NCBI RefSeq assembly: GCF_029227855.1
Contig: NZ_CP074356.1
DNA length: 64,000 nt
Origin: Escherichia coli
Lineage (GTDB): Bacteria > Pseudomonadota > Gammaproteobacteria > Enterobacterales > Enterobacteriaceae
Direction: 5' to 3' (one strand)
Below are positions 8,039-46,486 of the stretch, in pieces. Position 1 is the first letter of the stretch. Each line of letters opens with the position of its first letter. The position numbers and the translations under genes were made by a program. The notes under the pieces are model-generated. The model was not told where the DNA came from. It was given only the letters and a program-made list of their open reading frames with translations, and did no database searches.

Positions 8039-9934
8039 TTACCAGCCACCACCGCCTCCGCCACCCGCCCCGCCGCCAGCACCACCACCGGAATAACTTC
8101 GCCCCAACAAACTGGTATTGGCCCCCAGGCTCAGGTGCGTCTGTAATGAGAATAAAACGCCACTACGGGCAATTTCCGGGGCGCGAACAGCCGCTGTGAG
8201 TGATGGGGTGATACGTGCTGCCCATTCTCTGCCAAGGTTTGCCGAGACCGCCCAACCTAACAACGCGTAATCCAGTTTCCGTGTTTCCCCTTTCCGCCGC
8301 CGCCCACTGTGTGTTGCCGCCTCTTTACGCGCAAGATAGTTAACGATAGCTTCACCGTGGGCATAACGTTGCTGCCCAGTTTGGGTAAACTTTGGCAGAA
8401 AAATATACCCTATGCCAGTGAGATAACCGGTCAGGAAAACAGCGCTAAAATAACCCGCTGGCATATACCAGTAAAAGAATACATCTCCGACATTGATATA
8501 GAGAGAATAGAAGGCCACGCCTGAACAAATCAGTGGTAAAAACAAAGTGATGATTACACGATTAACGCAAGGCTTGTCATCATCGCGGGCAAATAAAAGC
8601 TCTAGGGAACAAAATAAAAAAGGAAGAAGCCAGCAGATCATAATAAACATATCGCCTACCAGACTCATTCCTGCCCAGCCTACGGGACTCAGGTTACCGT
8701 AGAGAATGACCGCCAATATTGCCATTCCGCCCCATTGCAAAAACGCATCAGGTCGGTAAAACGAAGACTTTTTACGCGGCAGATAAAATTTCTGCATCCG
8801 TAAAAATGCCTTGCGTAAGACTCTGTTGCGTCTCCCCGTAAGAACGACCTTATCGCCTTTACGAAATAACGCTTCCAGTAATAACTGCTCTGCGGGCAGT
8901 AATACCGCATTATTTCTGGTCGCGCCTTCATTAACACGAATCAGGATTTGCTGGTTCTTGTCATACTGATCTTTCAGATGAATTTTGCCTTTCACAATCA
9001 GATTTACGATATCGGCACAAAAACCTTTATCGTCGTAAACCAGTTTCGCATCGAGACGTAACATGCCGGGCGTGTAATCTGGCGGAATGACATCGGTTTC
9101 AATCACATCTACCGGCGTAAATTGTGGCCTGCGCTTCCAGAGATATAACCATCCACACGCCAGGAACAGACACGGAAACCAAATTAACAACGATGACGTA
9201 GAGGGTAAAAGAAGATGGCTGTAAATATTCGTCGTTTGTGGTGCCGGGGCATTACCAAGTAAAGCGTGAGGCCAGCGGTAGAGGACCGTGAAGTCTTCAC
9301 GATAAAACGGATCGCGGGATTCAATTCTTCCGTCCTCAAGGATGCGGCCATTTCGATATGTGTCGCCCTCTTCTCCAGTAAAGAGATCAATTTCGCTAAA
9401 TGGATTACCCGCAATATCAGGCAACTGGAGAGAAAATCGGGTCTTATAGATTTCAAACGGCCACTTGTTACCGGTCACGTTCCAGATTAACAGATCTGAA
9501 TCTCCCTCACGCAGGAAAGCATTTTTAACCTGATAATGAATTTGATAATGATAGTCGCCTTGAGGCAAGAAACGTTGTTTATCGCCCACGACAATACTCA
9601 TTAACCCGATATGCCAGTCAAGATGCCAGGGTTCAGGAATACCATCACGGGTGACGCCAACAATATGATAGTTCAGTAGTGCAGCGTCCCCATTAGGCTG
9701 CATCCATAGTCGTGGTAAATCACGATAAAATCCGTGCTTAATCTGCTGATTTCGCGCCTGAAAATGAATATTTTCTTTGATGTCGAGCACCCCATCCGGT
9801 TGCAGAGTGGCTTCAACATCAAAGAGCGAGATCCCTTCTTCATAAGAAGGGATCTCCGTGTTTTCTGCATAACTTAGAGATGCTACAAACAGCCCTGCTA
9901 TCAACAGCAAAATGCAGCGAAACTTCCCTGCCAT
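8039..9934 (-). CDS. yciQ: DUF2207-type membrane protein YciQ
   Basis: 631 aa; signal peptide, several TM helices, glycine-only C-terminal tail (GGGAGGGAGGGGGGGW). Confidence 0.85.
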   Translation of the reverse strand: MAGKFRCILLLIAGLFVASLSYAENTEIPSYEEGISLFDVEATLQPDGVLDIKENIHFQARNQQIKHGFYRDLPRLWMQPNGDAALLNYHIVGVTRDGIPEPWHLDWHIGLMSIVVGDKQRFLPQGDYHYQIHYQVKNAFLREGDSDLLIWNVTGNKWPFEIYKTRFSLQLPDIAGNPFSEIDLFTGEEGDTYRNGRILEDGRIESRDPFYREDFTVLYRWPHALLGNAPAPQTTNIYSHLLLPSTSSLLIWFPCLFLACGWLYLWKRRPQFTPVDVIETDVIPPDYTPGMLRLDAKLVYDDKGFCADIVNLIVKGKIHLKDQYDKNQQILIRVNEGATRNNAVLLPAEQLLLEALFRKGDKVVLTGRRNRVLRKAFLRMQKFYLPRKKSSFYRPDAFLQWGGMAILAVILYGNLSPVGWAGMSLVGDMFIMICWLLPFLFCSLELLFARDDDKPCVNRVIITLFLPLICSGVAFYSLYINVGDVFFYWYMPAGYFSAVFLTGYLTGIGYIFLPKFTQTGQQRYAHGEAIVNYLARKEAATHSGRRRKGETRKLDYALLGWAVSANLGREWAARITPSLTAAVRAPEIARSGVLFSLQTHLSLGANTSLLGRSYSGGGAGGGAGGGGGGGW

Positions 9935-39559: not shown

Positions 39560-39973
39560 ATGAGCGAAGCACTTAAAATTCTGAACAACATCCGTACTCT
39601 TCGTGCGCAGGCAAGAGAATGTACACTTGAAACGCTGGAAGAAATGCTGGAAAAATTAGAAGTTGTTGTTAACGAACGTCGCGAAGAAGAAAGCGCGGCT
39701 GCTGCTGAAGTTGAAGAGCGCACTCGTAAACTGCAGCAATATCGCGAAATGCTGATCGCTGACGGTATTGACCCGAACGAACTGCTGAATAGCCTTGCTG
39801 CCGTTAAATCTGGCACCAAAGCTAAACGTGCTCAGCGTCCGGCAAAATATAGCTACGTTGACGAAAACGGCGAAACTAAAACCTGGACTGGCCAGGGCCG
39901 TACTCCAGCTGTAATCAAAAAAGCAATGGATGAGCAAGGTAAATCCCTCGACGATTTCCTGATCAAGCAATAA
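39560..39973 (+). CDS. hns: nucleoid-associated protein H-NS
   Basis: 137 aa [44 protein letters not shown]...TWTGQGRTP...; AT-rich upstream region 38957-39559. Confidence 0.97.
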
Positions 39974-39996
39974 TCTTTTGTAGATTGCACTTGCTT

Positions 39997-40025
39997 AAAA
40001 ATCCCGCCATCGGCGGGATTTTTTA
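39997..40025 (+). terminator. hns terminator
   Basis: ATCCCGCC-ATC-GGCGGGAT hairpin followed by TTTTTT. Confidence 0.85.
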
Positions 40026-40062
40026 TTGTCCGGTTTAAGACAATTTAATAAGAATAAGCTAT

Positions 40063-40774
40063 AATAAATATCCTCCGGCATAGCCGGAGGTTTTTCAAAT
40101 GCGCCTATAAGGCTCTCTTACCAGCCGCGCCCTAACAGGCGCACACGATCTGACATTTGCATCCAACTTCGTTACTTACGGCCCGTAAACGGGCTGCCCG
40201 GATAGGGAATCGATAACTGCTCTCCCATTTTATCCTCTTCAAGCTGGTGCTTTATGTAATCCTGTATCTTCGCCGTGTTCTTACCCACCGTATCGACGTA
40301 GTACCCTCTGCACCAGAACTCCCTGTTCCTGTATTTGAATTTCAAATCACCAAACTGCTCGTAAAGCATCAGACTGCTTTTCCCTTTCAGATATCCCATA
40401 AAGCCGGATACGCTCATTTTGGGCGGGATCTCCACAAGCATATGGATATGATCTGCACAGCATTCAGCTTCCAGAATCCGTACACTTTTCCACTCACACA
40501 GCTTTCTCAAAATACTGCCTATTGCTCTACGCTTCTCTCTGTAGAACACCTGTCTTCGGTATTTTGGCGCAAAAACTATGTGATATTTACAGTTCCATCG
40601 GGTGTGCGCTAAGCTCTTTTCGTTCCCCATTGGGACCCCCTTTTGATTTCTTGTTTGACACTTGCAGTTGCCAGACCGCAAGGTGTTTTAACAAATCAAA
40701 AGGGGTTTTAATAACTGGCTTAAAGCTGAAAGCTTTCCGGAACCCCCAGCCTAGCTGGGGGTTTTCTGTGCACA
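40063..40774 (-). mobile_element. IS200 copy 1 (IS200/IS605 family), head-to-tail with copy 2
   Basis: About 712 bp unit with tnpA (HuH/Y1 transposase) and subterminal palindromes (CCTCCGGCATAGCCGGAGG at one end; CCCCCAGCCTAGCTGGGGG at the tnpA-proximal end). Boundaries are ambiguous by 1-3 nt. Confidence 0.85.
40172..40630 (-). CDS. tnpA: IS200 transposase TnpA (152 aa)
   Basis: Start refined to MGNEKSLAHTRWNCKYHIVFAPKYRR...; HxH motif (ADHIHMLVEIPP) and catalytic Tyr region (YIKHQ). Confidence 0.88.
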   Translation of the reverse strand: MGNEKSLAHTRWNCKYHIVFAPKYRRQVFYREKRRAIGSILRKLCEWKSVRILEAECCADHIHMLVEIPPKMSVSGFMGYLKGKSSLMLYEQFGDLKFKYRNREFWCRGYYVDTVGKNTAKIQDYIKHQLEEDKMGEQLSIPYPGSPFTGRK

Positions 40775-41487
40775 AATAAATATCCTCCGGCATAGCCGGA
40801 GGTTTTTCAAATGCGCCTATAAGGCTCTCTTACCAGCCGCGCCCTAACAGGCGCACACGATCTGACATTTGCATCCAACTTCGTTACTTACGGCCCGTAA
40901 ACGGGCTGCCCGGATAGGGAATCGATAACTGCTCTCCCATTTTATCCTCTTCAAGCTGGTGCTTTATGTAATCCTGTATCTTCGCCGTGTTCTTACCCAC
41001 TGTATCGACGTAGTACCCTCTGCACCAGAACTCCCTGTTCCTGTATTTGAATTTCAAATCACCAAACTGCTCGTAAAGCATCAGACTGCTTTTCCCTTTC
41101 AGATATCCCATAAACCCGGATACGCTCATTTTGGGCGGGATCTCCACAAGCATATGGATATGATCTGCACAGCATTCAGCTTCCAGAATCCGTACGCTTT
41201 TCCACTCACACAGCTTTCTCAAAATACTGCCTATTGCTCTACGCTTCTCTCTGTAGAACACCTGTCTTCGGTATTTTGGCGCAAAAACTATGTGATATTT
41301 ACAGTTCCATCGGGTGTGCGCTAAGCTCTTTTCGTTCCCCATTGGGACCCCCTTTTGATTTCTTGTTTGACACTTGCAGTTGCCAGACCGCAAAGTGTTT
41401 TAACAAATCAAAAGGGGTTTTAATAACTGGCTCAAAGCTGAAAGCTTTCCGGAACCCCCAGCCTAGCTGGGGGTTTTCTGTGCACAA
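40775..41487 (-). mobile_element. IS200 copy 2, directly abutting copy 1
   Basis: Second unit, same orientation, no spacer; differs from copy 1 at a handful of positions; ends at the A-run of the galU terminator. Confidence 0.85.
40884..41342 (-). CDS. tnpA: IS200 transposase TnpA (152 aa), copy 2
   Basis: Protein identical to copy 1 in the ORF track although the DNA differs at a few sites. Confidence 0.88.
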   Translation of the reverse strand: MGNEKSLAHTRWNCKYHIVFAPKYRRQVFYREKRRAIGSILRKLCEWKSVRILEAECCADHIHMLVEIPPKMSVSGFMGYLKGKSSLMLYEQFGDLKFKYRNREFWCRGYYVDTVGKNTAKIQDYIKHQLEEDKMGEQLSIPYPGSPFTGRK

Positions 41488-41516
41488 AAAAACGGCGTCG
41501 ATTGCTCAACGCCGTT
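41484..41516 (-). terminator. galU terminator
   Basis: On the minus strand AACGGCG..CGCCGTT hairpin followed by TTTTTTTT, just after the galU stop. Confidence 0.8.
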
Positions 41517-41540
41517 TCGTGGATAACACCGATACGGATG

Positions 41541-42449
41541 TTACTTCTTAATGCCCATCTCTTCTTCAAGCCAGGCTTTAAATTCCGTGCCAAGGGTGTT
41601 ATGACGAATACCGTATTCAACGAAGGCCTGCATGTAACCTAATTTATTACCGCAGTCATGGCTCTTCCCTTTCATATGATAGGCTTCCACCGTTTCTTTT
41701 TCGATCAGCATATCAATTGCGTCGGTGAGCTGAATTTCATCACCAGCTCCCGGAGGGGTTTTTGCCAGCAACGGCCAAATATCCGCGCTAAGTACGTAAC
41801 GACCCACAATAGCGAGATTAGACGGCGCAACATCCGCTTTCGGTTTTTCTACCACACCAACCATCGGTACGCTTTCACCCGGCGCTAATTCAACGCCTTT
41901 ACAATCCACAACGCCATATGCGGTAACATCAGCAACCGGTTCAACCATGATCTGGCTATGACCCGTTTCATCAAAGCGGCGGATCATCTCTGCCAGGTTA
42001 TCCTGTGACAAATCGGATTCATATTCATCCAGAATAACGTCAGGCAAAATAACAGCCACAGGTTCATCACCCACTACCGGGTGAGCACACAATACCGCAT
42101 GTCCCAGGCCTTTCGCCAGCCCCTGACGAACTTGCATAATAGTCACGTGCGGCGGACAAATAGACTGCACTTCATCAAGCAGTTGACGTTTTACACGTTT
42201 TTCCAGCATTGCTTCCAGTTCAAAACTGGTATCAAAGTGGTTTTCAATCGAGTTTTTAGATGAGTGAGTAACCAGCACAATTTCAGTAATGCCAGCCGCA
42301 ATACATTCATTCACGACGTATTGAATTAATGGCTTATCGACAAGTGGCAGCATCTCTTTCGGGATGGCTTTCGTCGCCGGCAACATCCTGGTTCCTAATC
42401 CCGCAACGGGGATAACGGCTTTTTTGACTTTCGTATTAATGGCAGCCAT
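41541..42449 (-). CDS. galU: UTP-glucose-1-phosphate uridylyltransferase
   Basis: 302 aa [35 protein letters not shown]... Confidence 0.95.

Positions 42450-46282: not shown

Positions 46283-46367
<85 letters not shown>

Positions 46368-46401: not shown

Positions 46402-46486
<85 letters not shown>

Follow-up and report, generated by a model that had tools for sequence, protein, structure and literature searches.

The closest described relatives of IS200C are IS200 of Salmonella and IS1541 of Yersinia. All of these share a length of about 0.7 kb, a single Y1/HUH tnpA gene, the lack of terminal inverted repeats and of target duplication, and a left end in which a terminator-like hairpin is followed by a 5' UTR stem-loop (the art200/STnc490 region). 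This left-end region contains art200 and the tnpA 5' UTR, the roles of which have been described (PMC4513863). IS200 is notoriously inactive in the laboratory (PMC4513863), and for this reason little has been documented about its target rules. IS608 of Helicobacter pylori serves as the mechanistic model of the family; it has hairpins near both ends and a transposase homologous to that of IS200C (PDB 2a6m, E=4e-19), but carries tnpB, a gene that IS200C lacks. The four nucleotides 5' of each IS608 hairpin base-pair with the cleavage site, and those at the left end are also responsible for target selection (PMC3201880). Like IS200C, IS608 inserts 3' of a short target that stays beside its left end. 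Its left cleavage/target site (TTAC) differs from its right cleavage site (TCAA), so that the right end of IS608 is not a target.

Tandem arrangements, known as (IS)2 dimers, are formed by elements of the IS30, IS21 and IS911 type, which have DDE transposases. The two copies lie in direct orientation with abutted ends, separated by a short spacer (2-3 bp) between inverted repeats, and such dimers are highly reactive intermediates. For IS200, no description of tandem or head-to-tail pairs, or of target sites, was found in the searchable literature, which is itself incomplete.

The DNA analysed in the current study (the window) is a stretch of 64,000 nucleotides from Escherichia coli (contig NZ_CP074356.1). 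At positions 40063-41485 it holds two intact 711-bp copies of IS200C, placed head-to-tail between hns and galU. The element is a known insertion sequence already labelled in public annotation, and is itself no different from IS200; only the abutting head-to-tail arrangement differs, and this is uncommon. The galU-terminator-proximal unit was named UP and the hns-proximal unit DOWN. The features of the locus are as follows.

39560..39973, + strand: hns CDS, a 137-aa ORF, with hns at equal coordinates in the near-identical JNEC-KY178 record
39998..40025, + strand: hns intrinsic terminator AAAAATCCCGCCATCGGCGGGATTTTTT, intact, identified from the sequence and also present in the empty K-12 site; it ends 37 nt before the element
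40063..40773, - strand: IS200C copy DOWN, 711 bp, right end at 40063 and left end at 40773, from the comparison of empty and filled sites
40072..40090, unstranded: DOWN right-end hairpin CCTCCGGC-TAT-GCCGGAGG, from the scan for terminator-like sequences on both strands and the DNA fold
40172..40630, - strand: tnpA of DOWN, 152 aa, Y1/HUH, from the ORF, Pfam Y1_Tnp and PDB relatives; annotated WP_000526135.1
40640..40763, - strand: DOWN left-end structured region, Rfam STnc490, with a hairpin at 40743-40761 and the tnpA 5' UTR stem-loop
40774..40774, unstranded: extra base between the UP right end and the DOWN left end, T on the tnpA strand, from the empty-site comparison
40775..41485, - strand: IS200C copy UP, 711 bp, right end at 40775 and left end at 41485
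40784..40802, unstranded: UP right-end hairpin, from the terminator-like scan and fold, with the tail ATATTTATT(T) directly before the DOWN left end
40884..41342, - strand: tnpA of UP, its protein identical to that of DOWN, from the ORF and annotation
41352..41475, - strand: UP left-end structured region, Rfam STnc490, with a hairpin at 41455-41473, also from the fold
about 41486..41517, - strand: galU intrinsic terminator, hairpin and T7, intact, from sequence and fold, with an equal T7 at empty sites
41541..42449, - strand: galU CDS, from the ORF and annotation, in the same orientation as both tnpA genes

Self-comparison of the window revealed a direct repeat with a period of 712 and five mismatches (+ strand 40289, 40403, 40484, 40682 and 40721). 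On the galU-sense strand the empty hns-galU site reads T7+ATAGC in K-12 and three other strains, and in the window this T7 and ATAGC enclose two 711-bp units with a T between them, each unit having the sequence GTGCAC...TATTTATT. The net gain over the empty site is 1423 bp (2x711+1) with no repeated target bases, and the unit is therefore 711 bp long with a 1-nt spacer. Because the ends sit in T-runs, the element boundaries can be slid by up to 2 nt. The 31-mer spanning the junction occurs only once in the window, and its occurrence by chance is not expected. The original prediction had correctly described two complete IS200 units in direct orientation, but had given them a size of about 712 bp, no spacer and a combined span of 40063-41487; these values are corrected here to 711 bp, one extra T at the junction and 40063-41485. 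Its further statements that each unit has subterminal palindromes and a 152 aa Y1/HuH TnpA, and that both host terminators were left intact, agree with the ORFs, the Pfam match and the folds, and with the unbroken hairpins at 39998-40025 and about 41486-41517. The statement that IS200 is not part of K-12 matches the empty K-12 hns-galU site, and insertion without target duplication is seen from T7+ATAGC at empty sites versus T7, element, ATAGC at filled ones.

The T-run of the galU terminator (galU/tnpA strand) adjoins the left end of UP, and we infer that it was the target of insertion. On the hns side, what follows the right-end hairpin of DOWN is ATATTTATT when read on the tnpA strand and TTTTTC when read on the + strand. 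It had been proposed that this hairpin and T-run add another terminator downstream of hns, and the mechanical scan indeed scored the hairpin as terminator-like on both strands. A promoter-like pair (AAGACA, 17 nt, TATAAT) was seen at 40037-40065 (+), with a -10 element that lies across the border between the hns-side flank and the right end of IS200C; the pair of hexamers points into the insertion sequence, antisense to tnpA, and promoter-like sites in the region showed no excess over shuffled sequence. A weak, sub-threshold Rfam STnc490 match at 39990-40092 (-; 25.6 bits, E=0.03) covers the hns terminator and the right-end hairpin of DOWN, and is probably a chance likeness of two hairpins.

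The TnpA protein matched Pfam Y1_Tnp over residues 11-129 (E=4.4e-38) and has relatives in the PDB (2ec2, 2f4f, 2a6m and 2xm3, E=1e-15 to 1e-23), with which its DHIH motif and R-x-Y-[FY]-V segment align. By analogy with Y127 of IS608, the latter segment would hold the catalytic tyrosine. Rfam family RF01405 (STnc490, the IS200 sRNA family) was detected in both left ends, with 146 bits in DOWN and 144.6 bits in UP (gathering score 56). The left-end hairpin, CCCCCAGC-TAG-GCTGGGGG, differs from the right-end hairpin, and no terminal inverted repeats were reported in the repeat analysis of the element. The sole annotated gene of the 711-bp unit, and its sole frame with a family match, is tnpA (152 aa); tnpB is absent. 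Comparison of filled with empty sites revealed no target duplication at hns-galU, ybfA-rhsC or kdsA-ldr. At the identical locus of JNEC-KY178, RefSeq annotates two 'IS200C family transposase' genes between hns and galU. In every property that could be tested IS200C thus belongs to the IS200 group, and the IS200 identity proposed from the sequence is borne out by matches in Pfam, PDB, Rfam and the RefSeq annotation alike.

Among 5,426 complete E. coli genomes, 50 contained a contiguous right-end/left-end (RE-LE) junction, as counted with a 70-bp query at E<=1e-12; a 160-bp query was uninformative, its halves being joined across a single copy. The 11 junctions that were inspected represent 10 loci: hns-galU, nifJ-ompN, yddM-fdnI, ldr-kdsA (twice), yodD-yedP, yebQ-htpX, ydcO-ydcL, ymgL-icd, rhsC-ybfA and an IncI-type plasmid. 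Tandem pairs thus recur at a low frequency, and the expectation that abutting IS200 copies would be unusual holds as far as rarity is concerned, but not if it is taken to mean that the pair is unique. The plasmid pair lies near nikA on pNMBU-W05E18_02 (IncI-type), directly after a hairpin and T-run, and has a TT spacer. At hns-galU itself, a search with a chimeric single-copy query found an element in 121 of the 5,426 genomes, the remainder being empty; both the single-copy and the empty-site alleles that the original prediction had proposed to look for exist. The count of about 1,938 genomes with an element at hns-galU, obtained with a two-copy query, was discarded as meaningless, as any IS200 copy covers 84% of that query. 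IS200C was found at 8,685 places in 2,182 genomes, so that each carrier has about 4 copies on average. On the rough estimate that a genome has on the order of a thousand terminators, chance re-use of terminators could give roughly the observed pair frequency of about 0.6%.

The hns-galU pair was most probably formed by two successive insertions of IS200C at the same spot, directly 3' of the intrinsic terminator of galU. Five element positions (53, 92, 290, 371 and 485) distinguish UP from DOWN, and all of these differences are non-coding or synonymous (the three coding ones are all synonymous). UP shows 0/711 differences from the aaeB-yhcO copy (downstream of aaeB) of JNEC-KY178 and is also identical to copies in CFT073 and other strains. 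For DOWN, exact twins over the 711 nt exist at nifJ-ompN, ydcO-ydcL and rhsC-ybfA of other strains. Both haplotypes are thus present at other loci, and occurrence elsewhere does not single out one unit as the mobile one. As the units differ at five sites and each has an exact twin elsewhere, two separate insertions fit better than a duplication or an artefact. It is unlikely that five changes made after a duplication would all have landed on existing haplotypes, although gene conversion among copies could blur this reasoning.

Alternatively, a single resident copy could have been duplicated in place, through replication slippage, unequal exchange between sister chromatids or a rolling/replicative transposase event, with later divergence by mutation or gene conversion. 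This would also produce a junction running exactly from right end to left end with a 712-bp period, and several other pairs do consist of identical units (L002, L005, L008, L009 and L011), as a duplication would yield. We nevertheless consider a duplication at hns-galU improbable, since every state at the five differing sites belongs to a pre-existing haplotype, that of aaeB-yhcO for UP and that of the three other loci for DOWN, and since only A/T-run microhomology is available at the site to drive an exact 712-bp event. Units of other pairs differ at up to 30 sites (L004/L007, kdsA-ldr), and the kdsA-ldr and ymgL-icd pairs clearly combine different copies. Of the two origins named in the original prediction, a second insertion beside a resident copy is accordingly supported by the five differences and the twin haplotypes elsewhere, which at the same time speak against a rolling/replicative event.

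It is still less probable that the pair was formed at another locus and moved whole, as a 1423-nt unit, by means of the left end of UP and the right end of DOWN. The mechanism of the family would need just one left and one right end on the same strand, which would permit such a move. The combination of UP and DOWN haplotypes was found in 0/10 of the other inspected pairs, however, and stepwise occupation is the simpler explanation because single-copy alleles fill the exact hns-galU site in the 121 genomes.

The whole 1701-bp hns-galU locus is 100% identical in JNEC-KY178. Over 26 kb (window positions 20020-46369) the identity with that record is 99.875%, with 29 mismatches and 4 gaps, and JNEC-KY178 has an Stx2e prophage next to ompW that is absent from the window. 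The strain of the window is therefore distinct from JNEC-KY178, though related to it, and the tandem pair exists in two different strains. Expansion of one true copy into two during assembly is thus a very remote prospect: repeats of about 0.7 kb can be miscounted, and assemblies disagree on the lengths of the T-runs around the element, in part perhaps through homopolymer error, but the identical pair occurs in two strains, the five differing positions match real haplotypes and the same kind of junction is found in 50 complete genomes. Positions 1-20019 of the window do not align with the JNEC-KY178 record and in other strains match the trp-side chromosomal backbone; no 100% match to the left flank of the window was found among the genomes of the collection.

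The target context of IS200C was compared across loci. In all of 40 distinct left-end flanks a GC-rich hairpin preceded a T-run with TT at its end, and 2-8 nt separated the hairpin from the insertion point. These flanks, to which a uniform hairpin test was applied, came from 10 E. coli loci and from 30 loci in other Enterobacterales (Citrobacter, Kluyvera, Brenneria, Mangrovibacter, Entomohabitans, Kosakonia, Pluralibacter, Yersinia and others), the latter located by their exact match to the element's first 20 bases. The control hairpin rate in the window was 9% at TNTT sites and 14% at TTTTT sites. The target tetranucleotide is degenerate (T-N-T-T), and the element is oriented in the same way as the T-run of the terminator. 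Unlike those of IS608, the sites of IS200C always include the preceding hairpin.

The right end of IS200C has a similar structure, a GC-rich hairpin followed by the T-rich tail ATATTTATT, which ends in TATT. At the internal junction of the pair the hairpin is followed by 10 nt and then by the left end of DOWN, and at the galU terminator the hairpin is followed by about 8 nt and then by the left end of UP, so that one geometry mirrors the other. The tetranucleotide AAAA lies 5' of both end hairpins. In contrast to the two different sites of IS608, both sites of IS200C are T-rich (T-N-T-T and TATT), and since the same AAAA precedes both hairpins the right end is target-like.

By analogy with IS608, transposition of IS200C would proceed via single-stranded DNA, and the AAAA tetranucleotides would read T-rich cleavage/target sites; if such sites are read at both ends, the right end would be a look-alike of the target. 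Insertion leaves the terminator target undestroyed and unduplicated. As the target survives and the right end consists of a hairpin with a T-rich tail, a resident copy would offer the next one two landing sites, namely its own right end and, directly before its left end, the T-run of the original terminator. From either of these, two separate IS200C copies inserted in succession would give a head-to-tail pair with a precise right-end/left-end junction. This precise RE-LE junction is the same as the known circle junction, which is no proof of a single-stranded circle mechanism. The pairs share direct orientation and abutted ends with the (IS)2 dimers, but a Y1 transposase and the lack of inverted repeats mean that they are not reactive dimers of the IS30/IS21 type, and the hns-galU pair persists in at least two strains. 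Judged from their sequences, IS200C pairs would be explained by ordinary target choice, with nothing to indicate a reactive junction.

In a 2025-26 preprint, sequences resembling intrinsic terminators were reported, from statistics, to lie directly upstream of insertion sequences, most markedly in IS200/IS605. There the signal was read as a limit on transposase expression, whereas target choice is the reading suggested by the present data (40/40 flanks, a distance of 2-8 nt and pairs at the same site); the two readings are compatible. Terminator targeting could also partly reflect the survival of neutral insertions rather than a preference of the enzyme. We tentatively suggest, stopping just short of endorsing it, that IS200C may be a dedicated terminator-targeting element that recognises a hairpin and T-tract in single-stranded DNA, uses the same AAAA guide at both ends and carries in its right end a built-in copy of its target, with pairs and chimeric collapse products as a predictable, so far undescribed part of its life cycle. 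If this suggestion is true, pairs and chimeras would be a natural readout of a transposition that is almost unobservable in the laboratory.

The order of insertion could be followed at kdsA-ldr. The common single-copy allele of this locus (sampled as L053) matches the DOWN unit of the pair with 0/711 differences and has the same private base at position 709, and the UP unit differs from it at 30 sites. The newcomer at kdsA-ldr was therefore the terminator-proximal copy, which lies between the terminator and the resident. An element is present at kdsA-ldr in 259 genomes, and 59/60 of those listed carry the type of L053.

At hns-galU the order of insertion is ambiguous. The single-copy alleles nearest to the pair, found in at least 22 genomes, differ from UP by 1 SNP and from DOWN by 4, which would favour UP as the resident, while the kdsA-ldr precedent points the opposite way, to UP as the newcomer. 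UP has an exact potential donor elsewhere in the related JNEC-KY178 genome, namely the aaeB-yhcO copy. No single-copy allele identical to UP or DOWN was found at hns-galU in the search with the chimeric query (121 genomes with the element). The nearest relatives by the 25-kb left flank (GMF065, KE55 and NRZ14408) all have empty hns-galU sites and hence carry no information on the order.

Two types of single-copy allele at hns-galU, that of L055 (WP2-W18-ESBL-10; 22 genomes) and that of L017 (EC16; 3 genomes), are chimeras with a 5' part of UP and a 3' part of DOWN, and share their outer flanks with the hns-galU pair. An analogous chimera is found at kdsA-ldr in E. coli C1 (L054), with a type-2 5' part and a master-type 3' part. 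From their sequences, these chimeric single copies would fit the product expected from homologous recombination between the units of a pair, or from gene conversion. Pairs may thus be short-lived, and some 'single' alleles may be their scars. That IS200 alleles at a given locus can be recombinant matters for strain typing based on IS200. Tandem IS200 pairs, for their part, are real structures and should not be collapsed by assemblers or annotators.

The extra T at the junction is not explained by the precise insertion of two 711-bp units, and neither model of pair formation fits it without an added assumption. The same extra T was found at hns-galU and at six other loci, and other pairs have a spacer of 0, TT or ATT. 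At rhsC-ybfA the flank is not the source of the ATT spacer, which is absent from the K-12 empty site. The spacers could have arisen if cleavage in T-rich flanks was shifted in register, through slippage in homopolymers or from sequencing error. The number of T residues also varies among the single-copy alleles of hns-galU (L017-L020 and L055), which read T7, element, ATAGC; T7, element, T+ATAGC; or T6, element, T+ATAGC. Independent insertions in different registers, homopolymer slippage or assembly error could account for this variation.

As both flanking terminators are intact, the pair is probably neutral for hns and galU. Together, the pairs, the invariable hairpin/T-run context and the chimeras offer a testable picture of how IS200C lands, forms arrays and decays, although the gain is modest. 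Elsewhere in the window, two tandem tRNA-Tyr genes were present (46283-46367 and 46402-46486). The equivalent region of JNEC-KY178 has one tRNA-Tyr followed by the RtT sRNA, with a 120-bp indel relative to the window, and this difference is copy-number variation in the tyrT/rtT repeat region.
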